DNA of 64,000 bases from an uncultured virus (IMG/VR IMGVR_UViG_3300035660_000549) (taxonomy: Duplodnaviria; Heunggongvirae; Uroviricota; Caudoviricetes), in the IMG/VR virus record IMGVR_UViG_3300035660_000549. One strand, 5' to 3'. The position numbers and the translations under genes were made by a program. How positions within the stretch are numbered: position 1 is the stretch's first letter; the number at the start of each line of letters is the position of its first letter. The notes beneath the pieces were generated by a model, which saw nothing but the letters and a program-made list of their open reading frames with translations, had not been told where the DNA came from and searched no databases. Below, in pieces: positions 32,655-62,559 of this stretch.

Positions 32655-33119
32655 TTATTCAGATCGGTCTCCATAAACAACTATACTTATAGAAGGACAT
32701 AACTCCCTTAAAAACCTAACGACCTGGGGAGTGTCTTCAAAATAGATATCAATCTGCTCCTCTTTTAGAATCTTAGCTTTTAATTCTGCCATTCTCTTAA
32801 ACCATTCTGTTAGACTACCTCCAATATAGTTACCAGGAGGTAGATGAGCAAATATTATTTTGTTGTAAGGAATATTATGTTTCTTCAGCCAGGTATAAGT
32901 GATCTCTTTAATAGGTTCATCTCTACTTGTTATTATTATAATTTCATCTTCTGGTAAGGCTAGTAAACTGGGATCGAACTGTACTTTGCAAGTCTTGTAA
33001 TACCATGATTCCAGTTCTTTTCTGGTCTCTTCTCTAGTTTCAAAGTCTATAGATCTAAGTTTGAATAGATCTATCTCAGCTATAACACCATCCAAATCTA
33101 TACCAATTCGAATGTCTAT
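32655..33119 (-). CDS. HAD-family 5'(3')-nucleotidase-like phosphatase (non-AUG start)
   Basis: The track start cuts HAD motif I; the upstream frame reads IDIRIGIDLDGV, bounded by TAG with no ATG/GTG/TTG. Start ATA 33119 or ATT 33113. Also 'ITSR' and 'YFEDTP'. Confidence 0.8.
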   Translation of the reverse strand: MDIRIGIDLDGVIAEIDLFKLRSIDFETREETRKELESWYYKTCKVQFDPSLLALPEDEIIIITSRDEPIKEITYTWLKKHNIPYNKIIFAHLPPGNYIGGSLTEWFKRMAELKAKILKEEQIDIYFEDTPQVVRFLRELCPSISIVVYGDRSE

Positions 33120-33268
33120 CTCTCTCCAATTTTTAATTTTCTAACTTCTATAGCTGGGAAAGAATAGTGACAACTTGGTTCTATAGTATTTTTTCCTGGA
33201 TCGAAGCAACAATATTGTTCTTCCCTATAAAAACAATTTCTACATATTTCTAAAGCATCTTTAGACAT
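33116..33268 (-). CDS. Small Cys-rich protein (50 aa)
   Basis: GAGGTGA SD; MSKDALEICRNCFY...CCF...CHY...GER*. Confidence 0.55.
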   Translation of the reverse strand: MSKDALEICRNCFYREEQYCCFDPGKNTIEPSCHYSFPAIEVRKLKIGER

Positions 33269-33280
33269 TTCATTCACCTC

Positions 33281-33397
33281 TCAAACATCTACTCCATGTT
33301 CATTCCTAAGATGTTCCTTAAGGTCCCAAATACTATCGAATATCTTCTCACACTTCTTCCTCCCATCTCTACAGTCACACTGGTACTTCTCTGTCAT
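33281..33397 (-). CDS. Small C2H2 zinc-finger protein (38 aa)
   Basis: MTEKYQCDCRDGRKKCEKIFDSIWDLKEHLRNEHGVDV; ATGA overlap with the upstream gene. Confidence 0.7.
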   Translation of the reverse strand: MTEKYQCDCRDGRKKCEKIFDSIWDLKEHLRNEHGVDV

Positions 33398-33756
33398 TTA
33401 AAAATCGACCTTAACTGATCCAAGAGATCTTGGTTTATATTAGTTCTAGGACATTTCCTCTTCACCAATTCTAGTGCTTCCTCCCATTCATAGTCACACT
33501 GTAGTCCTAGGATAGTAGCTGCTATAGCTGGAGATCTAGAGATACCAGCCTGGCACTGTAGAATTAGTCTAATATTTCTCTCCCTAGCTATAGTATAGAA
33601 AGCTACTGCATTCTTTATAGTATTCACTAGAGGAGTAATATCGTTTGTACCATCTTTGAGACTTCTAAGATCAAATATAATAGATCCATATTCTTCTTCT
33701 GTTAGACCTTCATCTACTGCTTTAATGCCTAAGATTCTATTAATCCAGTAAACTAT
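33394..33756 (-). CDS. Dual-specificity (CX5R) phosphatase (ATA start)
   Basis: 'QCQAGISRS' P-loop; frame extends 43 codons upstream of the track start to ATA 33756 after AAGGGA (MVYWINRILG...LKDG). Confidence 0.8.
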   Translation of the reverse strand: MVYWINRILGIKAVDEGLTEEEYGSIIFDLRSLKDGTNDITPLVNTIKNAVAFYTIARERNIRLILQCQAGISRSPAIAATILGLQCDYEWEEALELVKRKCPRTNINQDLLDQLRSIFK

Positions 33757-33770
33757 CTCTAATCCCTTCT

Positions 33771-33977: not shown

Positions 33978-33978
33978 T

Positions 33979-39768: not shown

Positions 39769-40070
39769 AACTTATCAAGACCATATTTTACTAAGAAGCC
39801 TACTATAGTAAAAGCAAGACCTATTGATGTCCATTTCCATTTATCTCTTTGAACTTTCTTTTCAGTCTGGTTATCTTTAATATCTGAAATATCATTCTTC
39901 ATATCATTAAAATCCTTAACGATACCACCTTTCATATCTTCTCCTATGAGAGCTTTTTTAATCATTGCAATGTCTTCTAGTAATGGCAACATAGTAGCTG
40001 TACATTCAACATGAGTAACGAAACCTGGGTTATCCTTCTTCTCAGACATTATAATTTCACCGATAGTCAA
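39765..40070 (-). CDS. Coiled-coil protein with C-terminal TM anchor
   Basis: Heptad region followed by 'WTSIGLAFTIVGFLV'. Confidence 0.5.
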   Translation of the reverse strand: MTIGEIIMSEKKDNPGFVTHVECTATMLPLLEDIAMIKKALIGEDMKGGIVKDFNDMKNDISDIKDNQTEKKVQRDKWKWTSIGLAFTIVGFLVKYGLDKL

Positions 40071-42441
40071 ATAAACTTCTCTGTTTATAACGTTTACTCT
40101 TTATGGCATCTAGGTACTTCTGTACTGGAGATGTTACAGTGTATTCTATTGTCTTAGGATAGTCTATTTCAAACTCCTTTGGTAGATCTTCTATCCTTTT
40201 CAGACCTATAATATTAACGAAGATATTTACTTCTTTCTTTTCCTTACCAATACCAATAGTAACTTTCATTGTCTTCTTTGGTACTATATGGAAAAGGAAG
40301 AACCTGTTTCCCTTCTTGATCTTCTCTTTGGTATACTCTTCACATATCTTTACTGCTTTGTAGTTCCTAGTTAGTGTTTTATATTCATCCTTGGTACATC
40401 TAGGTCTAATAGCAATGTCTTCAAGAGGGATCTTTTTATTAATGATATCTCTTTTAATAGATTCTGTATATCTTCCTATATCATCTTCTTTGTAGTTTAG
40501 AATTAGATTACCAATAGCTTTCTCCACTATACTAGTTATAGGAGCACTCTCCATCCTAACTACTTCTATTCCTTTTACTACTTCTTCTCCTTCTATAGTT
40601 ACTCCCTGGTATCTCTTCTTAGTTATTATTATAACTCTCTTCAGGATATATTCTATCGAGATCTTAAGTTTAGAAGGGACATGGTAATTATCTTCTATAA
40701 ACTTATCAATATGGTCCTGTATTTTCTCTAAGATTTCTTTACTTTCTTTCTCATGGTCTTCTGTCTTCAACTGTACAAATAAACTATCAGTGTCTCCATA
40801 CACCATTTCATATTCTATTTCTTTAACGTACCTGGATACTTCATTGAAGATGATCCTTTCCATTAGAGTAATAGCAGCAGCTACATTAGGTTCATACAAC
40901 CTAGAACCAAAGTACCCATTCTTAGACTGGTATCCATATATTCCATAGCTACAAGCATTTATAATAGATTTCAGAGCATCTGATAGTCTCTTGAATTTGT
41001 CTCTAGTTTCTTTGTCTATAGACTCTCTGACCCACTTCTTTACAAGTTGTCTCCTTTCCCTAAGAGGTCTAACTAGCCTATTAGACTGGCCTTCTTCCCT
41101 AGATGAAAAGAATAGATTTTCTCCTAGCTTGATATCTCCCATCAGTTTAGTATAGGTATCCCAACTAATATGGAAGGTCTCCATTAGAGAAGGATACAGT
41201 TCGGACCAGTCCATCACTAGGATGTAATCATAGATCCCTGGAGATGCTATCACTAGAGCTCCCTTGTACCCTGAAGCTTTAATGTATGAGTAAGACTTCC
41301 AGACTTCTCTACCAGAAGAATCTCTAAGATATAGTATATCTGCTATTTTGTTAGATCCCAAACAATCTGAGAAGGGTAGACCAGTTATCTCCCAAATAGG
41401 AATGATATAGTCTCTAATGAAGTGAAGTTTCTCTTCTAGATCCTTTAGAAGCTTTACATCTCTTAGATTATATTCTAGAACTGCCTTCTTGTTTATCTTC
41501 CAGGTTTTGTATATTTTGTCTTCTAGTATTATCTTTCCATATCCAAGTTCTTTCTTTGCTATGTAGTCTAGAGTATGCCAGACCTGTTCCTTGACTACCT
41601 TCCTATATAGAAGAGCGTAATCCAAAACATCTAGGCAGTGGAAGTGAGGACCTCTGGTAACTACTCCTATAGGAGATAGAAAACTATAGTTCATTCCTAG
41701 GATCTTTAGTCTATTTAAAATATATCCCATATCAAAGGGAGAGAAGGTAACTACTACATCTGGAGATATTTCAGACCATTTCTCTGATAATTTAATATAT
41801 AGATCCTCTTCGTCTTTACAGGGAATTAAGACATATTTACATGCTGGATCTTCTTTAAAGATCTCTATATTTTCTCCTATATAAAACTGGTAATAAGTAT
41901 TCGAAACAGGATCATATAATCCAATAATAATAATTTTATATTTATAAGTTTCATCTTTCCACTCCTCTTCTCCTTCTACTTCGATATCTAGGTAAATCTT
42001 ACGATGCTTAGATTCTATTTCTACTGGTTCTAGTTTATCATTTATTCCAGTATATAGTTTCTTGTCTATTAGAAACCTCTTAGTAAATAATATATTGGAC
42101 TCGTGAAGATGGAAGTACTTACCAGTTCTCTTCTGGAAGGGAGTAGTTAGATTAGTTATCTCTTTAACAGTATACGGATATCGTACATAGACCTTTACTA
42201 GGGGGAAACTCTGTGTAGATTTGTATCCTCTCTCTTCCTTCAGGATACTATCTCTTAGGACTGGGTTCTGTTTAATAAAAGAGTACCACATATTCTGTTG
42301 GTACTCAGGATAATAAAAATATGGAGTGTAAGGGATTAGGATAGGATCCACCCTCTTACCATCTATATCCCTTATAGATAGGACCACTTTAGTTTCTAGG
42401 TCCTCTGTAGAGTAGGAAATACCACAAATACAAAAATCTAT
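40057..42441 (-). CDS. polB: Family B DNA polymerase (probable ATA start)
   Basis: Exo 'YLDIE', 'FD', 'YNLRD'; pol 'DWSELYPS', 'KSIINACSYG', 'YGDTDS', 'KKRY'. Frame extends to ATA 42441 overlapping the ParB TAG, after GGAG. Confidence 0.95.
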   Translation of the reverse strand: MDFCICGISYSTEDLETKVVLSIRDIDGKRVDPILIPYTPYFYYPEYQQNMWYSFIKQNPVLRDSILKEERGYKSTQSFPLVKVYVRYPYTVKEITNLTTPFQKRTGKYFHLHESNILFTKRFLIDKKLYTGINDKLEPVEIESKHRKIYLDIEVEGEEEWKDETYKYKIIIIGLYDPVSNTYYQFYIGENIEIFKEDPACKYVLIPCKDEEDLYIKLSEKWSEISPDVVVTFSPFDMGYILNRLKILGMNYSFLSPIGVVTRGPHFHCLDVLDYALLYRKVVKEQVWHTLDYIAKKELGYGKIILEDKIYKTWKINKKAVLEYNLRDVKLLKDLEEKLHFIRDYIIPIWEITGLPFSDCLGSNKIADILYLRDSSGREVWKSYSYIKASGYKGALVIASPGIYDYILVMDWSELYPSLMETFHISWDTYTKLMGDIKLGENLFFSSREEGQSNRLVRPLRERRQLVKKWVRESIDKETRDKFKRLSDALKSIINACSYGIYGYQSKNGYFGSRLYEPNVAAAITLMERIIFNEVSRYVKEIEYEMVYGDTDSLFVQLKTEDHEKESKEILEKIQDHIDKFIEDNYHVPSKLKISIEYILKRVIIITKKRYQGVTIEGEEVVKGIEVVRMESAPITSIVEKAIGNLILNYKEDDIGRYTESIKRDIINKKIPLEDIAIRPRCTKDEYKTLTRNYKAVKICEEYTKEKIKKGNRFFLFHIVPKKTMKVTIGIGKEKKEVNIFVNIIGLKRIEDLPKEFEIDYPKTIEYTVTSPVQKYLDAIKSKRYKQRSLFDYR

Positions 42442-43247
42442 AGGATTGTTTCTCCATTTACAAACTTCTGTATTAGGTCTGTGGTTGCTTTAGTGAAGTC
42501 TAGGTTTAGTTCTTTGAGTTTCTTTCTGTATAGGATATCCAACTTCCTGGGGATCTTTATTTCTAGAGTCGATGTTTCAACATTTATCAAATACTTCCTG
42601 TAGTCTACATCTACATTTAGACCTGACTGGGAATCTTTAGATATTCCTTCTAGGACTGATAGAGGAGCATCCTGGCCTAGGTCTATCAACTGGGTTGCCT
42701 TCTTGAAATCATTCTTGAAGACTCCTTTGGATAATGCTACTTGGAGAGCTTTCTTCTTCTTTGCTGGAGCTTCCAGGAGCAACTGCTTATGTTTAGGAGA
42801 TGAAGCTATTATCTCTGGATAGTCTTCAAACTTACTCCAGTTCCTAATAGTATATTCTGTCTTCCCTATGCTATGAGCTATCTGGTCAAAAGTCATATTG
42901 TCTTCTTTTACACACTTCTTAACAAAATGGTACTTGGCTCTCTGGGAAATAGGATGGTGTAGATCATCTTGTAGGAAGCATGTGATCCTCTCTTCATATT
43001 TATCTTTGAACTCTGTTAGAATACATGGGATACTTTGTAGATCATTTGCTATGGCAGCAGACCATCTCAAGGCCCCAGATACTATTTCATTGTCTTTGTT
43101 TATTATTATAGGTTCTTTGATCCCTTCTGTCATTACACTAAGCTTCATTATCTCTTTCTCTTCATCTGTAATAGGATCCATTCTCACATTTGTAGGAGCT
43201 ACTTTGAGATCTTTGGGATCCTTCCAGACAATCTTTAGGTTATTCAA
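42438..43247 (-). CDS. ParB/Srx-like protein with HTH
   Basis: 'NVR', 'GIKEPIII', 'IVSGALRW', 'QIAHSIGKT'. Confidence 0.8.
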   Translation of the reverse strand: MNNLKIVWKDPKDLKVAPTNVRMDPITDEEKEIMKLSVMTEGIKEPIIINKDNEIVSGALRWSAAIANDLQSIPCILTEFKDKYEERITCFLQDDLHHPISQRAKYHFVKKCVKEDNMTFDQIAHSIGKTEYTIRNWSKFEDYPEIIASSPKHKQLLLEAPAKKKKALQVALSKGVFKNDFKKATQLIDLGQDAPLSVLEGISKDSQSGLNVDVDYRKYLINVETSTLEIKIPRKLDILYRKKLKELNLDFTKATTDLIQKFVNGETIL

Positions 43248-44229: not shown

Positions 44230-44257
44230 TTTCTTTCCTCCTTTAAACTTATTACTT

Positions 44258-46464: not shown

Positions 46465-46990
46465 TAAGTTTTACTTCTTTGACTATCTTTCCTTCTAGAT
46501 CTATTTCTGTCACTAGAAGATCTGGATTTCTGGTAAACTCCCAGAGTATTTGACGGCAATGACCACATGCAAATGTTAATCTCCTAATATCACTATCTGA
46601 GAATGAGATAACTATTCCTTCTATAGGATCTATAGAAGCAGTCCTATGTGATAGAAGATAATTAATCATCGCTATCTCTTCAGCATGATAACTCTTGTGA
46701 CAATAGTTCTGGATATTGAAACCAGTATAGAAATCTCCAGTCTTTGTATAGACACAAGCTCCTACTTTAGTATGGGAAGACCTGATTAGTATGGCATTGT
46801 TCCTAGCTTCTAAAGCAAATAATATTGCTTTTTCTTTATAAATATTATTGACAGAAGGAATCTTAGATTCTTTTCTTTCTGGATCGGTTCTATATAGTAC
46901 AAATAAAATATATCGACTACAAATATTACATGGAAGTGGAAATTTAGGAATTGTACATTCTTTTTTATCAACTGGGCAAATCTTGTTCAA
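46430..46990 (-). CDS. cdd: Cytidine deaminase
   Basis: 'KVGAC', 'YTGFNI', 'HAEE', 'ACGHCRQILWEF', 'ELYPYP'. Confidence 0.88.
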   Translation of the reverse strand: MNKICPVDKKECTIPKFPLPCNICSRYILFVLYRTDPERKESKIPSVNNIYKEKAILFALEARNNAILIRSSHTKVGACVYTKTGDFYTGFNIQNYCHKSYHAEEIAMINYLLSHRTASIDPIEGIVISFSDSDIRRLTFACGHCRQILWEFTRNPDLLVTEIDLEGKIVKEVKLSELYPYPYPRD

Positions 46991-47217
46991 TCTATTTCAA
47001 ACTCCTTCTTTCCAGTAGCTAGGAACTCTAGGACCATTCGAATATGTTTGCATGGCCTATGATAGATACTATTGTATGGGCATGCACACACAAAAGAAGA
47101 GATATTATATTCTGTAGGATTATCCATTCCTATCTTAATTCCCACAAAGTATTCTGTTCCATCTTCCTTTTCTACTATCCATGTTCTATATGAAGTCTGT
47201 AATATACTATATTTTAT
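46987..47217 (-). CDS. SWIM zinc-finger protein (probable ATA start)
   Basis: Not in the track. MKYSILQTSYRTWIVEKEDGTEYFV...CACP...RPCKHI; frame bounded by TGA two codons above ATA 47217; AGGA 7 nt upstream. Confidence 0.75.
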   Translation of the reverse strand: MKYSILQTSYRTWIVEKEDGTEYFVGIKIGMDNPTEYNISSFVCACPYNSIYHRPCKHIRMVLEFLATGKKEFEID

Positions 47218-50204: not shown

Positions 50205-50228
50205 TATTCTCTACTAAAGAGATATCCA

Positions 50229-50242: not shown

Positions 50243-50263
50243 TGTTTGTTAATTCCTAGTGTT

Positions 50264-51290: not shown

Positions 51291-51529
51291 ATTTTAGAAT
51301 ATCTTCCTTTTCTTTCCTGTTTGTTATCTCTTTTGGTATCTAGAAGGAATTCTCTGGTGTATTTTCTTCTATTAGATACCCTAGGGATCTTGCTCTTTCT
51401 TTTATTTCTTAGAATGTAACCAGATTTAGATTTTCTTCCTAATGGATCCCATATCATAGGTTGTCGAAATCTAGTCTGACCACTTTTACTAAGAGATCCA
51501 TGTGAACCCTTCCCAGCTTTCTTAGGCAT
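51287..51529 (-). CDS. rps30e: Ribosomal protein eS30 (S30e) homolog
   Basis: 'SHGSLSKSGQTR..P' and 'KSKIPRVSNRRKY' match the archaeal eS30 pattern SHGSLTKAGKVR.QTP...PR..NR..Y; 80 aa, very basic. Confidence 0.85.
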   Translation of the reverse strand: MPKKAGKGSHGSLSKSGQTRFRQPMIWDPLGRKSKSGYILRNKRKSKIPRVSNRRKYTREFLLDTKRDNKQERKGRYSKI

Positions 51530-51614
51530 ATTTTTCCACTGACTTCTTTTATGTTGTTCTAATTTATAAGTTTATAGGCTCTCCGAAGAATGAAACTCTC
51601 AAGATCTAAAAAAA

Positions 51615-52221
51615 TTATGGATCTAGAGTCTTTAATAAAACCAGAATAGAATATTCATCAAGTTTCTTAAGACCAATTTTATCTAGGATATCATGGAAGC
51701 CAATATGTTTGTGTTCTAGTGCTGTTAAATTTTCTATCACTTCATGATTAATTGCATCAATTAGTTTAGGAATATCTTTATGAAGTTCGCATAATCTCAT
51801 AACTGGTAGAAAGAAGTAGATATTTTGGGTAAGTGGAAACTCTAAAGCTAAAGGAAGATGATCATGAATATTTATCCAGTTGGTAATTCCATCTCTATCA
51901 GGAGAATGTTCTATATCCTTTTTCTTACTTAGAAAATAATACTCCATGCTATTCTTCCTCAATTCTAGTAACATGATAATTGGGGAAATAGACTCTCTTC
52001 TTTATTCCTTCATTTCTTTCATTATGTTTAGAAATAGATATTCTAATATTACCACATCTATTACATTCTCTCTTATTAACATCATATATAGACCCTGGCG
52101 ATCCATGTTTGAAATCATCATGTAATCCTAAGAAACATAAAATCCTTAGAAGTCTATCTCTTCTAGATTTCTTCTTCTTCCTTTCCTTACGAGAGAAAGA
52201 TACTTTAAAAGAACTAGACAT
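51615..52221 (-). CDS. Two hypothetical ORFs (51615-51974; 51949-52221 with C-H...CxxC Zn ribbon)
   Basis: ORF track; 'CFLGLH...CNRCG'. Confidence 0.5.
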
Positions 52222-53062
52222 TCTTTTTCTCTACTTCTCTTTCTTTATATCGCTTCCTTCCTAATATGAAATTCTTACTATCTAGATTATACTGTTTCAG
52301 ATCTTCTTCATAGTTCTTCCAGATATTAATAATACTAAGTTTCTCATTCCATGTCCTCTTGAGATCTATCATCTTAAATAGGAAGTCTATCTCCTCCTGG
52401 AAATCTTTGTACATTTTCATATTATGGATCCTAGTGAAGATATCTTTTAGATATTTATTGAAGAATTCAAGATCTCCTTCAGCATGACGGTCTCTTACAA
52501 TATCTCTATCCTCTTCTTCAGATTCTATCATAGAAATATCCTTAAGTTCTTCATTTATGTCTATTTCATTCTCTATAGTAAAGGCTAGACATAGAGTTCC
52601 TCTACAGATGAATGGATCCACTAGCCAACTTGGAGGTACTCTAAACTCCCATCCATGACGATTACTTCTAGCATCTCCTAGATCTCCATATTCTTCTCTT
52701 CTTTCAGAATTGAATGGATATTCTTCTATAAACAGATATGGAATAGAGAAATAGTAATCAAAGTACTTACAATGATCTTGTTTACCATCTAGATGAATAT
52801 GCCCTCCTAAAAAATTTCCATTCATTCCTCCACTGGATCCAGCTTTCACTTGGTAACCATTATATTTCTGGTCAATCTTTAGAATCAGTTTCCTAATATT
52901 ATCAAAATGCTTTAGAGGATCTACAGTAGCGATAGGTCTTAGTTCTCCTACATAATTACAGCCATCATGACCTATCCTTACAGCATTCTTCACAAGATCA
53001 TAAGCATATTCTACTTCTCCATCCTTTACAAATAGAAACTCTGGATCTGATCCTATTTTCAT
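52214..53062 (-). CDS. COOH-NH2 ligase type 2 (phiEco32-like amidoligase)
   Basis: 'IGSDPEFLF', 'IGHDG', 'GELRP', 'GGHIH', 'YG..GD.R...HGWEFRVPPSWL'. Confidence 0.88.
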   Translation of the reverse strand: MKIGSDPEFLFVKDGEVEYAYDLVKNAVRIGHDGCNYVGELRPIATVDPLKHFDNIRKLILKIDQKYNGYQVKAGSSGGMNGNFLGGHIHLDGKQDHCKYFDYYFSIPYLFIEEYPFNSERREEYGDLGDARSNRHGWEFRVPPSWLVDPFICRGTLCLAFTIENEIDINEELKDISMIESEEEDRDIVRDRHAEGDLEFFNKYLKDIFTRIHNMKMYKDFQEEIDFLFKMIDLKRTWNEKLSIINIWKNYEEDLKQYNLDSKNFILGRKRYKEREVEKKNV

Positions 53063-53231
53063 ATTTATTTCCTAGGTTGGTTATCCCAACTATCCAGGAT
53101 CCTATCATTTGAGATAGGAAATATTTAATCCTCATACTTCTTTAATAGTTTACATACTTCACATTCTTCACTAGGAACAATTTCATAGGTTATTCCTCTG
53201 GGCAATATAGATTTATGTTCTATACATACTT

Positions 53232-53996
53232 TCATATTTTATCTCCAATATCTCCTGTGTAATATCTTCTAATATATCTATCAAGAGAAATTTGAATACT
53301 TGATTTATGGTAAGGAATTAGATCGTCTTTCAAATTAATTAGTATTATTTGTAAATGGTTTAATTCGTTTAAACAATCATTTTGTAATTTAGATGAAGAA
53401 TCTTTATAGTTAATATAATTATCTAGCAATTCTTTACAGAACAAAGTTTCTATATATTCTAACTGTTTAGGAATATTATAGATTACTTCCTTATGGAGAC
53501 CTAATATAATTCCTTCCATCAATATTTTATAAGATTGTAATAGTAATTTATCCATTCCATATCTTTTAAGTCTAGTTTCATTACTCATATCTTTGACCAG
53601 AGATTGGTAATAACCTAAACAATGATCCAAATATCCAGAATGAATATTCTCTAGAACTATATTTTGTAGTTCCTTTACTAATTTAGAATTTTCATAAAGT
53701 TTCTCTTCAAATAGATTATCTAGTGAATTACCATTTCCTGAAGCTAATAGTCTAAGATAATGATTAATAGGGTATTCAGTAACATCTATCCTGGAAGATT
53801 TCTCTTGATATTCTTTTGGTCTAGGTTGAAAGAATGGAGAAACCATCTGTTGTAAAGCTGGGAAATATACCCTCCTGATATCCAGATCACTATCTTGTCT
53901 AGACCATCCATAAGCATAAGAACCAGAGATAGCAATGAATAGAGAATTCTGTATACCAGAATTATCTATCCAGTATTCAAATCCTTTATACTTCAC
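53232..53996 (-). CDS. Pol-beta superfamily nucleotidyltransferase (RlaP/YcgL-like)
   Basis: 'SGSYAYGWSRQDSDLDIR', 'GNGNSLD'. Confidence 0.82.
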   Translation of the reverse strand: MKYKGFEYWIDNSGIQNSLFIAISGSYAYGWSRQDSDLDIRRVYFPALQQMVSPFFQPRPKEYQEKSSRIDVTEYPINHYLRLLASGNGNSLDNLFEEKLYENSKLVKELQNIVLENIHSGYLDHCLGYYQSLVKDMSNETRLKRYGMDKLLLQSYKILMEGIILGLHKEVIYNIPKQLEYIETLFCKELLDNYINYKDSSSKLQNDCLNELNHLQIILINLKDDLIPYHKSSIQISLDRYIRRYYTGDIGDKI

Positions 53997-54649
53997 GAGT
54001 TTAGAACCTCCCTAATCTTCTTACTCTTTACTCCTATCTTTCTATTATTGACTAGAATATTACTTATCTCTTCTTCATTTAGATCCATTAACTTCCTAAA
54101 AGGAATCTTAGATAATTCTTCTGCAGTAGTTCTCCCTACCTGAGGAACACAGGTCCACATATTAGACTTGATAGATAAAATATCCTCTTCCTTCTTGACT
54201 AGGACTGGAGCTTTACTCTCCTTCTTACCAGAATAGTTCCATATCTTTTCTAGAGTCTTTATGAATTCTTTATTGGTCTTCACTTGTTTGAACCCTAGAT
54301 TATAAGATAAATATGATATTAGTTCTATAGAAGAAATAGCATTAGTAAAGTAAAGATACTTCTCTTTGGTAATAGGTCTCCTAGTAGAGTAATCATATGT
54401 TGGTATGTCTCCAACTACTATTAGAAGTCCTCTCATACCAGATAGCTTCATACTATATAGTTGATTCCAGAGTCTTCCTTGTCTAAGAGAATTGAAGAGA
54501 TCCTTGATCTCCTTCCTTTCTATCAGAATATCTCCTAGAACATAGTCTCCAGTCTTTAGACGTTGTACTTCTACAGGTATTCCTAGTTCCTTAAGCATTG
54601 TCAATAGAGTTCTAGGTTCTCTATCGTCAATAAGTATATTGTTAGCCAA
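53993..54649 (-). CDS. ERCC4/XPF-type structure-specific endonuclease (short form with HhH)
   Basis: 'IDDRE', 'LKTGDY', 'IERKEIKDL', 'GRL..Q', HhH 'VPQVG'. Confidence 0.92.
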   Translation of the reverse strand: MANNILIDDREPRTLLTMLKELGIPVEVQRLKTGDYVLGDILIERKEIKDLFNSLRQGRLWNQLYSMKLSGMRGLLIVVGDIPTYDYSTRRPITKEKYLYFTNAISSIELISYLSYNLGFKQVKTNKEFIKTLEKIWNYSGKKESKAPVLVKKEEDILSIKSNMWTCVPQVGRTTAEELSKIPFRKLMDLNEEEISNILVNNRKIGVKSKKIREVLNS

Positions 54650-54924
54650 TTTAGAACTTCTCTAGTTCTTCATATTCAACAAGATCTCTAATCAAGAGAC
54701 CAGATATTTTATTTCAGTATTCTCCTTCACCATGTAATTCATGTACCCTAAGGATTTCTTCTATTATTATTTCTCTATATGTCTTTTGCATATTTATTCC
54801 TCTATTAAATTCTCTATCTTAATAATTAATGTTAATGCTCTACATGGAATCTTAGTTAAAGAATCCCCAGCATCATAGAAACATCCTTTATTATAGTAGA
54901 AGCACTTCTTGCAAATTACTCTAA

Positions 54925-55446
54925 CTATTTTTTCTTGTCTTTCTTCCACTTCCCATACTCCTTGAGGATCTCGTTTATTGTAATAGGAAAAAAATTCCAT
55001 TGATCTACGCCCACATTGCAACAGTCATAAGAAAACTCATAGAACTTAATAGTAGTATAACGCCAGAGATCATGTGCGTGTCCACATAATACTAAATAAT
55101 ACCCTGGTCCAGCTTCTTCTGCCCTGTGAGTAAGTAATATATCTTTCCCACCATAATAGATCCTCATATCTTTAATTATAGACTTCATATTATTGGAACT
55201 ATCATGGTTCCCAGCAACTAATATTATTTGCCCATTCAATCTGTCTAGAATATTCTTAATCTCATTTTTACTAAGTTTGAATGCGAAGTCTCCTAGATGG
55301 AAAACTGTGTCCTCTGGTTTTACCCTGGAGTTCCAGTTCTTTATTAGGGTCTCATCCATATGATAGATATTCTTGAAGGGTCTATGAGAATATTTAATTA
55401 TTTTCTCATGGCCCCAATGGGTATCTCCAGTGAAGTAGTAATTCAA
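54925..55446 (-). CDS. Calcineurin-like metallophosphoesterase
   Basis: 'GDTHWGH', 'HLGDF', 'GNHD', 'GHAH', 'NVGVD'. Confidence 0.9.
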   Translation of the reverse strand: MNYYFTGDTHWGHEKIIKYSHRPFKNIYHMDETLIKNWNSRVKPEDTVFHLGDFAFKLSKNEIKNILDRLNGQIILVAGNHDSSNNMKSIIKDMRIYYGGKDILLTHRAEEAGPGYYLVLCGHAHDLWRYTTIKFYEFSYDCCNVGVDQWNFFPITINEILKEYGKWKKDKKK

Positions 55447-55517
55447 ATATATTCACTTCCTTATATTCTGATCCGATCTAGGTTTCCATTTCAGAAAACT
55501 TAGCAATTTTTTAATAA

Positions 55518-55552
55518 ACAAAAAGGGGATTTAGGAAGATATTTTTCTTCCT
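55518..55552 (-). terminator. Possible terminator (hairpin followed by a U-rich tract)
   Basis: AGGAAGA/TCTTCCT inverted repeat followed on the minus strand by CCCCTTTTTGTTT, in an intergenic gap. Confidence 0.35.
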
Positions 55553-55736
55553 CTTTTATCTTAGAAACTAGATTTATTGAACTAGTTTCTCTTTGATCTT
55601 AGAAGCTATGGAGGTAATAGCTGTAATGGCTATATATCCAACTCCAACTATACCTGTTAATTCTATACTTAGAACAGCCCACTCCATTAGCTTTTCTAGA
55701 AAATCACTTAGCACTTCTTTTCACCTCTATTTAGGT

Positions 55737-56444
55737 TTATTCTATTACTGAATGATGCCCTTCTTTCAGTAATGTCTTTAGGTCCAAGACATCTCTTAAA
55801 TAGTTTTCCTTGACCAGTGGAAGAGAGATTAGGCCAGATACTCCTTTAGATATAAAAATAGAATATCTCTTAAGTTCTGGTCTTTCATCTCTCTCCTTAT
55901 AGATATCTTCTAGAAAGTCTAGGAAATCTTGACCAATGAACCTCTTTAGAACAGACCTATCATATGGATTGAGTGAACTATCCTTTATAATGATTCCATC
56001 AATAGTGGTCCTCAATTCAACTGGGACCGAGTGAAATCTGTGAAGTGATATTAGACTTAGAATGTATCCATTAGATAGATTGTACCTTTGTTTGAAGAGA
56101 TGTCTTATCCTAAAGTACCTCATCAGAGTTTCCTTCTCTAAAGGTCTTAGTGTTACATTGTCAGCAAATAGAATGTTTACCAGCACTGGCTTTAGACCCC
56201 ATCTTAGAAGAAGATCCAGGTCTCCATTCTCTGATACTGCACAGTTTACATTGTCTTTACCATACTTCTTGTTAGCATAGTATCCTAGAGCATTTACAGT
56301 AGTTGTTTTACCAGATCCCTGATATCCAAAGATTATGAAGTTCTTAAAGATAATATTGTTGCTTTCATAGTTTATGTCTGGTTTCCTTTCTATTATCTTC
56401 TTATTTGGGAATAGCATCTTGAAGAAATCTTCATTTACCAGCAT
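55737..56444 (-). CDS. P-loop NTPase of unknown function
   Basis: Walker A 'GYQGSGKTT', Walker B-like 'ILFADN'. Confidence 0.7.
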   Translation of the reverse strand: MLVNEDFFKMLFPNKKIIERKPDINYESNNIIFKNFIIFGYQGSGKTTTVNALGYYANKKYGKDNVNCAVSENGDLDLLLRWGLKPVLVNILFADNVTLRPLEKETLMRYFRIRHLFKQRYNLSNGYILSLISLHRFHSVPVELRTTIDGIIIKDSSLNPYDRSVLKRFIGQDFLDFLEDIYKERDERPELKRYSIFISKGVSGLISLPLVKENYLRDVLDLKTLLKEGHHSVIE

Positions 56445-56654
56445 ATTACAAAGCTCTTATTAGTATTAACTTCCTACCTTGCTGTTGGATAGAAGTATAT
56501 TCCATTGTTAGGAGACAGTCTTCTGGTATCGATACATAAGCTGGTTCTCCCTTTACTAGTTTTAGAATTTTCATATTTTAGTATTGACCTTTATTGAAAC
56601 TCTAAACATATAGTATCCTTTGGAGAATATAAGTCTTTGTTTTTCTCTAGTGTT

Positions 56655-56975
56655 TTAGAATATATAGGAATCCTCTTCCCTATTCTCCAGGTCTGGGTTT
56701 CTCTTTAGTAAATTCTCTCCTAGTGTCCCTATTACTGATATTGCTGTTTGAGGGTTGAAATGGTCTTCTATTACCTTGTCTATAATCTTAGCAAATATTT
56801 TTATTCTCTTGTTTGTTTCTTTCTGTGACCTAGGAGTTTTAAACTCACTATCTATAAGACTGAAGATCAAATACATCATATCTTCAGAAGAGAATTTCTC
56901 TTTACTTATTCCTTCTACAATTCCTTCTATTCTTTTCTTCTCTTCATCTTTTAAATCAGATATTTTATTTCCTAT
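56655..56975 (-). CDS. Hypothetical protein (ATA start)
   Basis: AAGGAGG, 8-nt spacer, ATA at 56975, in frame with the track ORF and two codons below an in-frame TAA. Confidence 0.65.
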   Translation of the reverse strand: MGNKISDLKDEEKKRIEGIVEGISKEKFSSEDMMYLIFSLIDSEFKTPRSQKETNKRIKIFAKIIDKVIEDHFNPQTAISVIGTLGENLLKRNPDLENREEDSYIF

Positions 56976-56988
56976 ATTTTATTCCTCC

Positions 56989-57789
56989 TTATTCTCTATT
57001 TCTAACTTCAACTATTAATCTTTCAACTTCTATGGAATGAATTCCTTCATATTCACATACACCGATTGCTAGTTGTATGAAATTATAAATTCTATCTGTT
57101 TCACTAGATGGTATGAAACCAATAAAAATTCCTCCTTCATTAATTATAGTACATCCATGAAATAGACTATGTAGGTTGGAAGGAAGAGATCCTAAAACTT
57201 CATCTGTAAAATAACAATTTAGAAAGATCGAATTATGGAAATCAAAGTCTGGATTTCTAAAAACTTCATTGTAGTATATAATATCATATTCCTGTATTTC
57301 TCTTAGAGCTTCTGAAATATTGTTTGGTCTGGATGTAGTTTGAATTGTTATTTCATGAGGTCCTGAAACACTATCCCAATGGATTCCACTATTATCTTGA
57401 ATAAAAGACTGTCTAGGAGCTTCTGTTGGAGTTCCTAGAATCTCAGGAGGAGTTGGTACTTCATCTCTTTCTAAATCTATCCCTTGATCTATATCATCTA
57501 CTATTCTCTGGTAACTTCTGATAGCGGTAGATAGATAATCATGGATCTCATTTAATAGTTTCTTTTTCTTCTTAGTATTCCACTTCTCTACTACAACAGA
57601 ATGTGAACCCAGACTTAGTATCCTAACTTCATAGTCTCCTATAGTACACTTTTCTATTATCTTTCCTTTAGGATAGAAGTATTCATTTTCCCTAGTACAC
57701 TTCCAACACCTCCAGGTTCCAGTAGAATCTATATAACCTTCATTAGATCGATGTTTGGGACACTTGAATTCCATCTTCTTTTTCTTCAT
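56989..57789 (-). CDS. Hypothetical protein with N-terminal Zn ribbon
   Basis: CPKH...CWKC. Confidence 0.55.
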   Translation of the reverse strand: MKKKKMEFKCPKHRSNEGYIDSTGTWRCWKCTRENEYFYPKGKIIEKCTIGDYEVRILSLGSHSVVVEKWNTKKKKKLLNEIHDYLSTAIRSYQRIVDDIDQGIDLERDEVPTPPEILGTPTEAPRQSFIQDNSGIHWDSVSGPHEITIQTTSRPNNISEALREIQEYDIIYYNEVFRNPDFDFHNSIFLNCYFTDEVLGSLPSNLHSLFHGCTIINEGGIFIGFIPSSETDRIYNFIQLAIGVCEYEGIHSIEVERLIVEVRNRE

Positions 57790-58251
57790 TTATTTTCCTT
57801 CTTTTATTTTAACCATTTTGATCTTTATAATCTCATCATAAGAAGTATTCTTCTTCTTGATATGGGACCAGTATAGAGTTATTAATCCAGCAGAATTTAG
57901 ATTTCCTAGAGCTCCTATATACTTATGAGGAAGGCTTAGGATAGCCACTGGATATTTTATGTATCTAAGGAAGTTGTATAAAGTCCTTTCAGTTAAAGAA
58001 AGACTTTTCTTTTCTTTAGTACTCTCTTCTTTTTCTATATTCTTTCCAGAAAATATAGGATTAAAGAATGGACAGATTGTTATAACACTAGGATCATGTA
58101 GCATTGGGTTAAACATTAGGCCAGTGTCTGGGCAATACCACTCTTGTGAATTATTAATCTTCAGAGGATATGGTTTAGTACAATCCATACAGTTATTAGT
58201 TATAAATACTCCCTGCCTATCATTCTTGATTCTCTTATTCTTCTTCTTCAA
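57790..58251 (-). CDS. Hypothetical protein (Cys cluster plus possible wHTH)
   Basis: CMDC...CP...CP; 'LSLTERTLYNFL'. Confidence 0.5.
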   Translation of the reverse strand: MKKKNKRIKNDRQGVFITNNCMDCTKPYPLKINNSQEWYCPDTGLMFNPMLHDPSVITICPFFNPIFSGKNIEKEESTKEKKSLSLTERTLYNFLRYIKYPVAILSLPHKYIGALGNLNSAGLITLYWSHIKKKNTSYDEIIKIKMVKIKEGK

Positions 58252-59149
58252 CTACCCAACCTTCCTCACTATTTAGTTTCTGGAAGAATATAGAAGACAT
58301 TTTCTGATGGTATGTTTTAGAATCTAGGAAATACTTTAATGAATTCATTCTGGTAGGATCTATATCTAATAGATAGAAAGTAGAATCTTTGATAAATAGA
58401 TCTACTACTCCATTCCCTAGCATTATTTTATTAACTAGGAGTTTAGCTATTCCTTCTAGGTCTTTTCTATTGACTTCTAATTCTTTAGATAGTTCTATGA
58501 TTTCTTTCTTTTCTTCTTTTGAAGGTTCTTCATATTTAATTGTTCTAGTATATTGACTTGTAATTCTAATGGCTTCCTTATATCGTGATCCTTCTGGGCA
58601 GTATAGAATAGTCTTATCATACTTATAGAATTTATATAGACTTCCAACTACCTCTCCTAGGAATGTATAAATTTCTATTGTTGGAAACCATGTTTTATCT
58701 AGATCTACTTCTAAAGGAGATAGCAAATGGTTCTTCTGCCATTCTGCTATTTTAGTAGAATCTAGGATTGGAAGTTCTTTATCTGTATCATAATCTACTA
58801 GATATTTAGTATTAGGAATAGTGGAGGAAAAGAATGGTAAAGTATCTATTTCATTCCCTAGAGTAATAAAAAGAGAAGGCTTGTCTTTTACTAGTTCTAA
58901 AGTAGAAGGATATGAATCTAGAAGATATCCTTTCCCTTTTAGAAACTGTAAGTTTCCAGGATTATATTCTGGTCTAAAAATAATACAGGTCTCTGGGTAA
59001 CATGCTATATTTGAAGCAGAGAAGAAAGTATTATGCCACTTTACTGATTGTGCATAGATAGGAACTTTATCCAGATCAGTAAATAGTTTGACCAGATATT
59101 CCCTGTCCTCATCCAGAGTACTATATACTAGCAATACTAAGTCTTTCAA
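58235..59149 (-). CDS. Divergent RimK-like ATP-grasp protein
   Basis: 'LVKDK', 'LGNGVVDLF...FYLLDID' correspond to RimK DK and G.D...Y.LE.N motifs, with ExN changed to DID. Confidence 0.55.
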   Translation of the reverse strand: MKDLVLLVYSTLDEDREYLVKLFTDLDKVPIYAQSVKWHNTFFSASNIACYPETCIIFRPEYNPGNLQFLKGKGYLLDSYPSTLELVKDKPSLFITLGNEIDTLPFFSSTIPNTKYLVDYDTDKELPILDSTKIAEWQKNHLLSPLEVDLDKTWFPTIEIYTFLGEVVGSLYKFYKYDKTILYCPEGSRYKEAIRITSQYTRTIKYEEPSKEEKKEIIELSKELEVNRKDLEGIAKLLVNKIMLGNGVVDLFIKDSTFYLLDIDPTRMNSLKYFLDSKTYHQKMSSIFFQKLNSEEGWVVEEEE

Positions 59150-59154
59150 TACTC

Positions 59155-60306
59155 TTAACTCCTATAGCCCTTCAGACCATCCTGTTCATGACCTAAAAAA
59201 TAAACTAGGTCAAAGTCTGGATCTTTGTTGTTCTCACTACAACCATGAGTATTGATACACTTTTCACAGTAGAACTTCTTACACCTAGAACAGAATATAG
59301 AAGTCTTCATGTCTACAACTACTTTACACTCTCTACATATACATTTCTCATTCTTTTCAGTCTTCTCTTCTTCCTTGGTTTCCTTCTCTTCTTCTTCTTT
59401 AGTTGCTTTCGGATTTAGATCCTCATAATGTGTTGTAGTCTTATTCTTATGGTAACATTCTATACAACGATCTTTCTCTAAGTTTCCTATCTTTACTTTC
59501 TCACATGGAAGATGATTAGTACCACAGAAATCACAGGATATAATTCTATTGAAGACCCATCCTCCTTCTTTTACTTTAGCTTCATTCCATTCACCATATA
59601 GTTCTGCTTTGGTCTCTCCTTTCTCTCTCCATATCTTAACTAAGGAAGAAGATTCCTCTGGAATATACAATGTCATACTAGAATCTTTAAAATTGGGAGA
59701 CTTTAAGAATTCTCTTACTCCATCGAATTCAGAAGCAATAATAAAGCTTCTGTCTATCTTAACTAGAACAAATGAAGATTCAGGTATTCCATACAGAGTA
59801 CCATCTTTGAATAGAATAATCATGTTTCCATCTGATAGTGGGTAGAACTTCTCTATTGCTTTTTCCCTAGGATATTTCTTAAGAAGTTCTTCTAGAATAT
59901 GTACAAAGATTTCTGTATCTGCTCCAGATTCTCTATTATGCCCTAAAGAATCTAGGAGTTTTCCTACATATTTATAACTGGTAAAGGTACCGTTGTGGAC
60001 TAGTGCAAAGTTTCCATTCTCACTTAGAAATGGATGTGCTTCCTTATCTTCTTCCCTATCTACTATATTAGTACTGGCCGATCTGTTATGCCCAATAGAA
60101 ATATCAGAATCTACTTTAGATAGATCTCTGGTTACTTCCATTCTAAACTTAAGGGGAGGAATAGCTTTCTTTAGAACAATTATCTTTCCAGATTCTATAT
60201 AAGCTACTCCAGAAGCATCTGTCCCTCTAGACTGTTGTGCTACTATTATATCTAGTATCTTCAGAGGAGCATTCTTTATTCCATATAGACAACATATTCC
60301 ACACAT
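59155..60306 (-). CDS. Class II (Ntn) glutamine amidotransferase with C-terminal Cys-rich domains
   Basis: 'MCGI', 'SRGTDASG', 'GHNRSAS', 'AHPF', 'VHNG', 'DTE'. Confidence 0.93.
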   Translation of the reverse strand: MCGICCLYGIKNAPLKILDIIVAQQSRGTDASGVAYIESGKIIVLKKAIPPLKFRMEVTRDLSKVDSDISIGHNRSASTNIVDREEDKEAHPFLSENGNFALVHNGTFTSYKYVGKLLDSLGHNRESGADTEIFVHILEELLKKYPREKAIEKFYPLSDGNMIILFKDGTLYGIPESSFVLVKIDRSFIIASEFDGVREFLKSPNFKDSSMTLYIPEESSSLVKIWREKGETKAELYGEWNEAKVKEGGWVFNRIISCDFCGTNHLPCEKVKIGNLEKDRCIECYHKNKTTTHYEDLNPKATKEEEEKETKEEEKTEKNEKCICRECKVVVDMKTSIFCSRCKKFYCEKCINTHGCSENNKDPDFDLVYFLGHEQDGLKGYRS

Positions 60307-60307
60307 T

Positions 60308-61216
60308 CTAAATACATTCTCCTAAATTTAACCAGTCTTCTTTTGTTTTGTAATCATTGTAAATATACTTGCTTTTTATCTTATCATCTTCAAAGAACTC
60401 TTCCCAAGTTATCCTTCCATTAATAAAATCTAGTTCAAATGATTTCCAGTCAAATAGATTATTACAACGGTTACAATAGGAAAATGAAGGGAATGTAAAG
60501 TCTGGAGCTTTAAGAGAACCACACTTTATACATTCAGTATTTTTAGAAGCATATTCCTCAAAATGTTTTAGATCAAATAAAACTTCAATATTCTGACTTC
60601 TGTTAGAGTTATCGGATGAAGAAGATGTAATTATACTTGGATCGAAGTTCTTAAGGAATTCTTTTAGAATATCCACATCTAGGGATGACAAACATGCATC
60701 ACATAGAGGAATATCTCTATATGATTTTTGATTACACCTAGAACATCTATTGTATTTTCTCTCTATATCTATCTCGTGAGAGAATGCTGTTACTAGGAAA
60801 TTAATAAACCTAGTTAGAGTATGTTGATCATACATTATACTAGCATCTGTGTCTATCTCAATAAATATATTAGGATTAGGAAGACATGGAACTATATTTA
60901 GATCAAATTTCTTAGCTAGTAATCCTAGTTCTCTAGTTAATTGTAAACTTGAAGAAGAGACCCGTATTCCTTTTGCATTTAAATAATCCCAGCTTTTAAA
61001 GAAAGAGATATCTTCAGATACTCCTTCCTGTTTGTAATGAAGTGGTCTTCTAGTGAACTTGCGAAGGAGATATGCTGGAATAAATATGTCTATGGATTTA
61101 GGAACATTGATGGCTCTAGATCTAATTTTCCCTGGGAGAGATGGGCTCTGTACATATTCTGGAAATACTTTAACAGCTTCTAATACTCCTTCCTTGATTA
61201 TTTCTTTGTTTATTAT
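60308..61216 (-). CDS. Hypothetical protein with Zn ribbons, 302 aa (ATA start)
   Basis: Frame is open 127 codons upstream of the track ATG with no ATG/GTG/TTG; ATA 61216 overlaps the upstream TAA, with GGAGG 10 nt upstream. Confidence 0.7.
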   Translation of the reverse strand: MINKEIIKEGVLEAVKVFPEYVQSPSLPGKIRSRAINVPKSIDIFIPAYLLRKFTRRPLHYKQEGVSEDISFFKSWDYLNAKGIRVSSSSLQLTRELGLLAKKFDLNIVPCLPNPNIFIEIDTDASIMYDQHTLTRFINFLVTAFSHEIDIERKYNRCSRCNQKSYRDIPLCDACLSSLDVDILKEFLKNFDPSIITSSSSDNSNRSQNIEVLFDLKHFEEYASKNTECIKCGSLKAPDFTFPSFSYCNRCNNLFDWKSFELDFINGRITWEEFFEDDKIKSKYIYNDYKTKEDWLNLGECI

Positions 61217-62559
61217 TGTATAGCATCCTCCAGAAGTTGTAATGCAGATAGAAAATTCTTTGAAGGAATAAGATTGCCAGTAAGTTCATCTTCTTTAACA
61301 ACATCAAGCATCAGAAGTTTATTTACAAGTCTAGAAGAGAAGAGAGACTGTAGAGATCCTTTAGCTTTCTGTATGGCTGTAATAATATTATGAAAATCTT
61401 TCATATGTGGATCAACCAATAAATCCATTAGATCAATAAACCTCTCTGTAGAAGGGAGATCTTCTATTTTTAGATTGTCTATAATGTCTTTAAATTCTTC
61501 TATGGAAATATGATCTTCTAGTTTAGGAAGTATGTCATTACCTGGGTTTGGAAGAGAATTAATTATGGGAACTAGATTATAAGAATCTTTAGTAAGTTTC
61601 TGTACAAAGAACCTATATTCTGATTTGTCTTCAGTTCTATTCCATTGTTCTAGGATCTTATCAGATACAGTATTTCCTTCTGCTACTGTTTCATAGAAAT
61701 CAAAGACCTCTTTCTTCAAAGTAGCAGAAACATCTTCTAAGATTTCTTTTAACCTATCTTTGTTAGAAGTGTAGAAACTCCTCCATAACTCTGTTATTGG
61801 AACATATACTTTCTTAGTCTTAATGCCAGAATATGTGATAGAAGAAGGAAGATATATAGGAATTACTGATCTACTTCCATACATTACTACTCTTTCATAT
61901 ATTTCTTCATTATTGAATACTGGTAAAGATTGATTATCACTATCTTCTAGGAGTAACCTAATAACTCCAGCTATTCCTATTATCTGGAAGAGAGGACTTG
62001 AAGAAGGAATTCTACATTCTAGAGTATCTCCGTTCTCTCCCTTAGCTAGAGCCATCCAGTGATCTCCATTTGAATCTCCAAATTCAGTAAACCTAGACCA
62101 TGAAGAGAATGCTAATCTAACATCTGAAGCTCTGTATACTCCTCCAAATATAGGAGAGTTAGCAGATAGAAGAGCTATTAGAGGTTGAGCATTGAACAAG
62201 ATCTTACTCATCTCTACCCATGATTCTGGAGACATTCCTTTTAGAGAAGTATGGATATGACCAGAACAGAAGTCATCATAGTATGGATAGTTTCCTAGTA
62301 AAGAATATATCCATTTCTCTTCTTCACATATCCCTAGACACTTTTGAATTACATATGCCAGGTGATCAGCTAATTCTCCCAGTGTTGGATATGGATCACT
62401 AGGAAACTCTGGTTTATTATCATCAAAATAGAAGCGACTGAATATATTTCTAAATTCTCCTTCTGCTAATTGATGATCTCCTTCATATCTTATGAATGGA
62501 GACTTCTCTATAGGAATTATATTTCCTTCTAGTTCCACACCTTGCTTATTTACCTTGAT
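61213..62559 (-). CDS. Carboxylate-amine ligase (GCS2/YbdK-like), probable ATC start
   Basis: 'GVELEG', 'SGHIHTS', 'PLIALLSANSP', 'TLECRI'; AGGAGG, 8-nt spacer, ATC 62559 restores the strand before GVELE. Confidence 0.8.
   Translation of the reverse strand: MKVNKQGVELEGNIIPIEKSPFIRYEGDHQLAEGEFRNIFSRFYFDDNKPEFPSDPYPTLGELADHLAYVIQKCLGICEEEKWIYSLLGNYPYYDDFCSGHIHTSLKGMSPESWVEMSKILFNAQPLIALLSANSPIFGGVYRASDVRLAFSSWSRFTEFGDSNGDHWMALAKGENGDTLECRIPSSSPLFQIIGIAGVIRLLLEDSDNQSLPVFNNEEIYERVVMYGSRSVIPIYLPSSITYSGIKTKKVYVPITELWRSFYTSNKDRLKEILEDVSATLKKEVFDFYETVAEGNTVSDKILEQWNRTEDKSEYRFFVQKLTKDSYNLVPIINSLPNPGNDILPKLEDHISIEEFKDIIDNLKIEDLPSTERFIDLMDLLVDPHMKDFHNIITAIQKAKGSLQSLFSSRLVNKLLMLDVVKEDELTGNLIPSKNFLSALQLLEDAIQ

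Follow-up and report, generated by a model that had tools for sequence, protein, structure and literature searches.

Introduction

In Escherichia coli, infC and pcnB start at AUU, and ATA, ATC, and ATT (hereafter, ATH) are listed as start codons in NCBI translation tables 4 and 11 (Mollicutes). Here, we describe a stretch of DNA of 64,000 nucleotides from an uncultured tailed virus (IMG/VR record IMGVR_UViG_3300035660_000549), which we call the window, and in which seven genes probably begin at such near-cognate codons. The seven genes lie in the non-structural half of the window and seem to be intact and under selection. They are likely to initiate at AUA, AUC, or possibly AUU at the positions where their relatives have AUG, GUG, or UUG.

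The closest described cases are found in Staphylococcus aureus. In a published study, the starts of infC (AUA), ccpN (AUA), cvfC1 (AUU), and citZ (AUA) were mapped behind extended Shine-Dalgarno (SD) sequences, and AUA or AUU starts in this species yield approximately 10 to 30% of the output of AUG (PMC13009471). The genes of the window resemble those cases in that an AUA/AUU-type codon is the sole start at a conserved N terminus and is missed by gene finders, and three of the seven sites have an extended SD. They differ in other respects. The S. aureus cases are a handful among thousands of genes and their initiation was mapped experimentally, whereas here there are 7 among 81 frames of one virus, which is probably archaeal. 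Furthermore, four of the sites described here have no extended SD, the replicative polymerase is included, and the starts are predicted from sequence.

A second precedent comes from the fusellovirus SSV10, in which the annotation gives the open reading frames (ORFs) C34, A49, and D60 the starts CUG, AUU, and AUA (PMC6080066). As in the present case, which also seems to concern an archaeal virus, non-canonical starts were assumed there in order to keep conserved ORFs. In SSV10, the assignments concern three small ORFs and are a matter of annotation judgement only, whereas the sites in the window are anchored on the starts of orthologues or on a catalytic motif and include large enzymes. A literature search that did not extend to subscription journals yielded no account of an archaeal virus in which ATH starts are used densely.

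Results

Seven frames lack a canonical codon where the protein starts

We surveyed the 81 non-nested frames of at least 60 codons in the window, taking ATG, GTG, and TTG as canonical starts. The distance between the opening of the frame and the first canonical codon has a median of 3 codons. Its five largest values (25, 33, 34, 51, and 150) belong to five of the seven genes considered here, and the other two genes have distances of 8 and 15. The initial annotation had proposed ATH starts in at least seven genes. All seven codons are present in their described contexts, and the codon lists of the seven frames contain no ATG, GTG, or TTG between the frame opening and the ATH position. The length of some of these open stretches is itself informative: when stops are taken to occur at their off-frame frequency (0.108 per codon), a stretch of 127 codons would remain open by chance with a probability of 5e-7, one of 43 codons with 0.007, and one of 32 codons with 0.026. 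The frames that depend on an ATH codon are 7 of 81, i.e., approximately 1 in 12. The first canonical codon in the 81 frames is ATG in 50, TTG in 17, and GTG in 14, which agrees with the earlier remark that many genes use TTG, as far as this rule of the first canonical codon can tell.

The comparison with homologues, presented gene by gene below, places the protein start at or near the ATH codon in six genes; in the seventh, which encodes a HAD-type phosphatase, a catalytic motif does so. Standard gene callers use only ATG, GTG, and TTG, and had been predicted to cut these genes short. This is what we found in the four calls that we examined among the public predictions for the window's own genes: 776 aa for the DNA polymerase, 441 aa for the GCS2-like ligase, 175 aa, and 74 or 73 aa.

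The probable ATA start of the DNA polymerase is conserved in an independent contig

The family B DNA polymerase gene (PolB; 40057..42441, minus strand, 794 codons) starts at ATA 42441-42439, and this codon overlaps the upstream TAG as ATAG, as had been noted. In a protein alignment, the column of this ATA is Met1 in 11 of 18 homologues. In the remaining homologues, the start is at the same column with L as the called residue (two), five residues upstream (four), or, as called, farther downstream (P0002). Nine related loci allowed us to map the start at the DNA level. The first canonical start aligns with the ATA in six of them (GTG in L006 and L010, ATG in L009 and L018, TTG in L013 and L014), and in two others (L011 and L019) the start lies nine codons after the ATA position. 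The ninth locus, L008, is a separate contig from another data set, whose polymerase is 88% identical (87% at the nucleotide level), and it has ATA itself at the start of PolB.

The comparison with L008 also informs on the state of the gene. The values of dS, dN, and dN/dS over 351 codons are 0.51, 0.07, and 0.14; hence, PolB is under purifying selection. The fallback start of the window, GTG 42387, has a passable SD (-5.8 kcal/mol), and starting there would drop nearly invariant N-terminal residues of the polymerase. This GTG is GTT in L008. Since L008 keeps the ATA and lacks the GTG at this value of dN/dS, the ATA is neither an error nor a sign of recent decay. The closest relative of the polymerase in the databases is P0002 (83% identity in the alignment), for which two pipelines called two different downstream starts, as expected if P0002 also has no canonical start. 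As a side observation, P0002 has a LAGLIDADG-type intein of approximately 300 residues in the polymerase domain, and the allele of the window is free of inteins.

A ligase gene with ATC and two genes with ATA behind strong ribosome-binding sites

The gene of a GCS2-like carboxylate-amine ligase (61213..62559, minus strand, 448 codons, with a weak match to the Pfam family GCS2) starts at ATC 62559-62557. As described in the initial annotation, the codon stands 8 nt (aataaagt) after an AGGAGG ribosome-binding site (62568..62573, minus strand), which overlaps the TAG of an upstream ORF of 73 codons. We aligned 15 homologues, one of which is 5'-partial. Among the 14 full-length ones, the ATC column is Met1 in six (MKV[YWN]KQG.ELE or MEV.KQG) and an internal M in two, and the other six start 2 to 6 residues upstream. 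Only one canonical codon, GTG 62538, could serve instead, and it encodes the V/I of KQG[VI]ELE, a motif that hardly varies.

Downstream of the ligase is the gene of a Cys-rich protein with CxxC pairs (60308..61216, minus strand, 302 codons), starting at ATA 61216-61214, which forms an ATAA overlap with the TAA of the upstream gene. ATG, GTG, and TTG are all absent from the first 150 codons of this frame, and the ATA lies 127 codons before the first ATG. A GGAGG motif is located 10 nt before the ATA. All three elements of the earlier description, i.e., the GGAGG, the overlap with TAA, and the gain of 127 codons, were thus found. An exhaustive profile-free search gave six stand-alone homologues of 275 to 331 aa. 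Extrapolation of the match coordinates puts four of their N termini at frame positions 25 to 28 and two at positions 41 to 45, with ATA 61216 being position 24, so that four homologues start 1 to 4 codons after the ATA and two start 17 to 21 codons after it. A 5'-partial homologue (62% identical) reads through the position of the window's first ATG and has Leu there. Another relative, 91% identical, was called from that first ATG only, as a protein of 174 aa.

The third gene with a strong site (56655..56975, minus strand, 106 codons) starts at ATA 56975-56973, one codon after an in-frame TAA, and its first ATG is 32 codons downstream. The ATA follows an AAGGAGG ribosome-binding site (56984..56990, minus strand) after 8 nt (aataaaat), again as described. 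The called start of P0135, a cluster member with at least 90% identity (107 aa, MNINKISDL...), lies within two codons of this ATA, and P0135 has the N-terminal 32 residues with conservative changes; the window's own calls have 74 and 73 aa. Gene calls are likewise shortened in the close relatives P0002, P0139, and P0122, as expected if canonical starts are absent there too.

A SWIM gene and two phosphatase genes

The SWIM zinc-finger gene (46987..47217, minus strand, 76 codons, with a match to Pfam SWIM) starts at ATA 47217-47215, 11 nt inside the upstream gene and 24 codons before its first GTG. The proposal of this start is well matched by three related loci (L009, L011, and L019), in which the orthologues have ATG-AAA-TAT (MKY...) where the window has ATA-AAA-TAT (IKY...).

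A gene similar to dual-specificity phosphatases (33394..33756, minus strand, 120 codons) starts at ATA 33756-33754, 14 nt after the upstream stop and 43 codons before the first GTG (33627). The Pfam DSPc match opens 15 codons upstream of that GTG, and the orthologue in L009 reads ATG-GTT-TAT-TGG (MVYW...) versus ATA-GTT-TAC-TGG (IVYW...) in the window, with the similarity ending there. The initial annotation stated that this ATA completes the CX5R phosphatase. It does complete the fold; the CX5R loop itself lies downstream of GTG 33627.

The HAD-type phosphatase gene (32655..33119, minus strand, 154 codons) starts at ATA 33119-33117, with ATT 33113 and ATT 33107 as alternatives. Its first canonical codon, TTG 33095, is the Leu at the x of the catalytic DxD in IDLDGV, and only ATH codons are available upstream in the frame. 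A start at TTG 33095 would delete the nucleophile Asp because it is the middle codon of D-L-D, and the claim that ATA 33119 or ATT 33113 is needed to include the motif therefore stands. The frame resembles the 3'-phosphatase domain of phage polynucleotide kinase/phosphatase, and tblastn matches to Pnkp begin at frame position 14, at the motif. Searching the PDB by sequence with this frame returned no match.

Ribosome-binding sites and coupling to the preceding gene

We scored the SD sequences by their duplex energy, i.e., pairing to the 3' tail of 16S rRNA. The sets for comparison were 1,737 internal ATH codons and 74 canonical starts. Three sites stand out: 56975 (-10.0 kcal/mol) and 62559 (-9.9 kcal/mol), both in the top 1% of internal ATH codons, and 61216 (-9.3 kcal/mol). 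Together they are in the top 1 to 2% of internal ATH codons and in the top 12 to 16% of canonical starts. The other four sites have -5.3 to -6.5 kcal/mol, close to the median of canonical starts (-5.55). The initial annotation had asked for a scoring of this kind, on the spacing between SD and codon. In the six genes scored for their first canonical codon (all but the SWIM gene), that codon has only -0.9 to -5.8 kcal/mol, compared with -5.3 to -10.0 at the ATH sites; examples are the first ATG of the 56975 gene (-0.9) and GTG 62538 of the ligase (-4.0). An AGGAGG motif by itself is unspecific, with 23 occurrences on the coding strand versus 25 on the other, mostly inside genes.

The position relative to the preceding gene follows a familiar geometry. 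A 4-nt overlap of start and stop is found at ATA 42441 and ATA 33119 (ATAG) and at ATA 61216 (ATAA), and 16 canonical gene pairs in the window overlap in the same way. These three sites are like ATGA-type coupling in their geometry and unlike it in the restart codon, which would be AUA and not AUG, GUG, or UUG. Among the remaining four sites, one is 11 nt inside the upstream gene and three are 12 to 14 nt after the upstream stop.

We also screened every frame of 30 codons or more for additional ATH codons upstream whose duplex energy reached -6 or better, and no convincing extra case emerged. ATT 46237 was considered as an additional start and rejected, since it is outcompeted by an ATG in a 4-nt overlap. 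A metallophosphoesterase gene could be an eighth case: its start may be ATA 55452 (AAGGA plus 5 nt) or TTG 55446 (plus 11 nt), and the assignment is ambiguous.

Gene content and probable host

All plausible genes of the window are on the minus strand, and its G+C content is approximately 35%. The left half (1 to 32 kb) encodes a phage capsid, a tail tube, an anaerobic ribonucleotide reductase, radical-SAM enzymes, and sugar-nucleotide and glycosyltransferase functions. The right half has genes for replication and repair (the family B DNA polymerase, RadA/Rad51 with an HhH domain, an ERCC4 nuclease, a ParB-like protein, and a DNA methylase), along with those of a papain-like protease, phosphatases, and ATP-grasp, GCS2-like, COOH-NH2-ligase, and amidotransferase proteins. 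The named homologues in the PolB and GCS2-like searches come from archaeal bins, and the nearest clusters of RadA are viral or archaeal. The main ribosome-binding motif is GGTGA, with 39 copies on the coding strand versus 9 on the other. Approximately 17 of these copies precede canonical starts by 4 to 8 nt, and most of them belong to the structural half. At the ATH starts, by contrast, the sites are of the GGAGG or GGAG type. Because of the archaeal bins, the RadA clusters, and the prevalence of GGTGA, we regard an archaeal host as probable and the virus as a likely tailed virus of an anaerobic archaeon. The runs that contain DNA of the window are labelled as sediment metagenomes.

Other searches gave little. 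No tRNA or tmRNA genes and no Rfam families were found in the window, and no DNA match to deposited phages was found for 40057-44300. Scans of viral contigs returned distant relatives only or none, scans of genome contigs returned no match, and NCBIfam gave nothing above noise for six proteins.

Two small Cys-rich ORFs fill an apparent gap between the two phosphatase genes and are below the usual length cutoff for ORFs. One (33116..33268, minus strand, 50 codons) has an ATG behind GGTGA and a TAG that overlaps ATA 33119 as ATAG. The other (33281..33397, minus strand, 38 codons) has, by eye, a zinc-finger-like C...C...H...H pattern, and its ATG overlaps the stop of the phosphatase gene as ATGA. 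Farther along, the minus strand from 52214 to 63655 has a cluster of peptide- or amide-bond-forming enzymes that looks like a small-molecule or peptide-tagging system. Its members are a RimK-like ATP-grasp protein (63655-62786), the 73-codon ORF, the GCS2-like ligase, the Cys-rich CxxC protein, a class-II glutamine amidotransferase (60306-59155), and a phiEco32-like COOH-NH2 ligase (53062-52214). In the left half, an ORF of 1,613 codons (9336-14183, minus strand) has an ATP-dependent DNA/RNA ligase domain in the middle of the protein (residues ~593 to 794), and the remainder has no family match. The runs X3 to X5 contain related strains, mostly 90 to 99% alike. Contigs of related strains from other runs skip or replace the intervals 46057-46410, 49599-50003, and 57367-57425 (352, 403, and 57 bases), which suggests that small genes come and go between strains.

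Discussion

From the position of the protein N termini and the absence of canonical codons at these positions, we infer that initiation takes place at the ATH codons. Several observations weigh against this view and must be set beside it. The four sites with an average SD are only in the top 10 to 18% of internal ATH codons. The ranks of the seven sites among internal ATH codons combine to a p value of ~1e-4 (Fisher's method), a statistic in favor that is not wholly independent, as the sites were partly chosen by their SD. For the shorter upstream extensions (7 to 24 codons), the length of the open stretch does not reach significance by itself. At the Cys-rich gene, ATA 61216, ATA 61213, ATA 61201, and ATC 61198 are inseparable by homology. 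For the HAD gene, the support for the start consists of the DxD motif, and the neighboring ATH candidates are likewise inseparable. The phosphatase of L009 could also start at a GTG that precedes the aligned ATG by four codons. The seven genes are all in the non-structural half, and this distribution (7 of 53 versus 0 of 28 frames) is not significant (Fisher p = 0.089). Relatives at 35 to 52% protein identity have canonical starts at these sites and show no such habit. Finally, a review of archaeal translation initiation, searched by terms, names only AUG, GUG, and UUG and has neither "AUA" nor "near-cognate" (PMC7531240).

Among the alternatives, the one that survives best, while still being unlikely, is that translation begins only at the first downstream ATG, GTG, or TTG, or that the genes are decaying pseudogenes, the upstream stretches being relics in either case. 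The downstream starts are indeed those picked by gene callers, GTG 42387 of PolB has a passable SD, and the shorter extensions are, as said, not remarkably long. Such starts would be costly: they lose the nucleophile Asp of the HAD protein, the nearly invariant N-terminal residues of PolB and of the GCS2-like ligase, 43 of the 120 residues of the phosphatase fold, and 127 of the 302 residues that are common to the homologues of the 61216 gene. Five of the six scored canonical alternatives have an SD of only -0.9 to -4.0 kcal/mol. In the sixth gene, PolB, the alternative GTG is not kept in L008, and the dN/dS ratio is not that of a decaying gene. The ATG at codon 150 of the 61216 frame is Leu in the homologue that reads through it.

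It is very improbable that the virus uses a deviant code, or editing, such that ATA is read as Met in general, a stop codon is reassigned, or the mRNA is edited to AUG. Mitochondrial codes do read AUA as Met, which gives the idea some precedent. Within PolB, internal ATA codons behave as in the standard code: the residues aligned with the 43 of them are mainly Ile (44%), Leu (18%), and Val (10%), the six commonest do not include Met, and the profile is like those of ATT and ATC. We rejected on this ground a code with ATA as Met. Reassigning any one stop would raise the summed length of long ORFs by approximately 10% at most, and each of the three stops is used to terminate long ORFs: TAA ends 27, TGA 19, and TAG 13 of the 59 ORFs with 100 codons or more, so that code 11 fits. 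Table 4 usage was also rejected, since TGA ends 19 of these ORFs and reading it as sense barely lengthens ORFs. The window resembles tables 4 and 11 in accepting ATH codons as rare initiators and departs from table 4 in that TGA is a stop. The window revealed no tRNA gene, and editing would not account for the ATC.

We give as little credit to programmed frameshifting or readthrough, which would join each frame to the preceding gene and remove the need for a start of its own. Three of the sites overlap an upstream stop, and the frame of the 61216 gene is open from 61285, with 23 codons across the end of the GCS2-like gene, which speaks for the idea. However, stand-alone homologues with their own Met exist for the GCS2-like ligase (440 to 465 aa), the Cys-rich protein (275 to 331 aa), and PolB (~780 to 830 aa), with the caveat that fused homologues could appear only within the length ranges that were searched, and in orthologous loci the genes open with canonical starts of their own at the corresponding positions. 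Fusion by frameshift is thus unlikely, because both partners of the overlapping pairs have stand-alone homologues.

The least credible alternative is an artefact of sequencing or assembly, by which a genome with ATG at these sites was miscalled from G to A: six of the seven codons are indeed one G-to-A change from ATG, but L008 has the same ATA in PolB, such changes cannot turn ATG into ATC, errors would not single out seven start codons in 64 kb, and a re-assembled contig of 77,017 bp with a word depth of ~181, from the one deep run examined (which may be the source sample and hence not independent), shows no difference over 42640-62639 (20 kb), an interval with four of the seven sites. The check for G-to-A errors that the initial annotation called for favors the published letters, as far as this re-assembly goes.

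If the seven genes are initiated at their ATH codons, as we consider most probable, how could the ribosome recognize them? It would most likely be placed by SD pairing, with strong pairing at three of the sites and average pairing at the other four, and the very tight coupling to the preceding gene probably assists initiation. We assume that Met is inserted by the initiator tRNA through a mismatch at the third position of the codon. The yield would probably be a fraction of the output of AUG, which could suit enzymes needed in small amounts. The parts played by SD pairing and coupling, the inserted residue, and the lowered yield are all points that we infer. It is also conceivable, albeit doubtful, that AUA is a regular fourth start codon in this system, either because the check exerted by aIF1 or the initiator tRNA is loose in the anaerobic host or because the virus loosens this check during infection.

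The distribution of the feature among relatives indicates that it is recent. The relatives at 35 to 52% identity are canonical at these sites, whereas in close relatives (83 to 91% identity) PolB and the 61216 gene seem to carry it as well, and one close relative has a canonical call for the 56975 gene. This suggests that the habit is young and confined to a narrow lineage. The proposal of a relaxed selection of start codons holds in part, then: the seven frames would depend on ATH codons, whereas relaxation as a property of host or virus at large is no more than a possibility, and the more distant relatives use ATG, GTG, or TTG there. No frame of L009 has more than 15 codons ahead of its first canonical start. 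Long upstream open stretches in L009 to L019 and in L001 were considered as more cases and set aside, as several end, by eye, at canonical starts behind GGTGA- or GGAGG-type sites, and there was no clear ATH case among them. Six of the seven codons are a single G-to-A step from ATG in an A+T-rich genome, and the feature could be tolerated drift rather than regulation, a further point that tempers our view; drift and selected down-tuning are not separable here.

These results may have consequences for the annotation and the biology of such viruses. The mechanism of near-cognate initiation is known, and it is the density that is unusual: elsewhere it concerns a few genes per genome, and here it would concern about one frame in 12, among them the replicative DNA polymerase, in a virus whose replication genes are of archaeal type. 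Public gene predictions leave out 7 to 127 residues of these proteins, both in this virus and in its close relatives, and the HAD protein thereby loses a catalytic residue. Such shortened sequences distort the prediction of folds, the assignment to families, and the clustering of proteins. If the virus loosens the check on start codons, translation of a class of its enzyme genes, that of the replicative polymerase among them, would be restricted to infected cells. And if the habit reflects either the host machinery or its manipulation by the virus, these genes would provide seven natural sites, with orthologues starting at AUG or GUG, for testing the stringency of start-codon selection.

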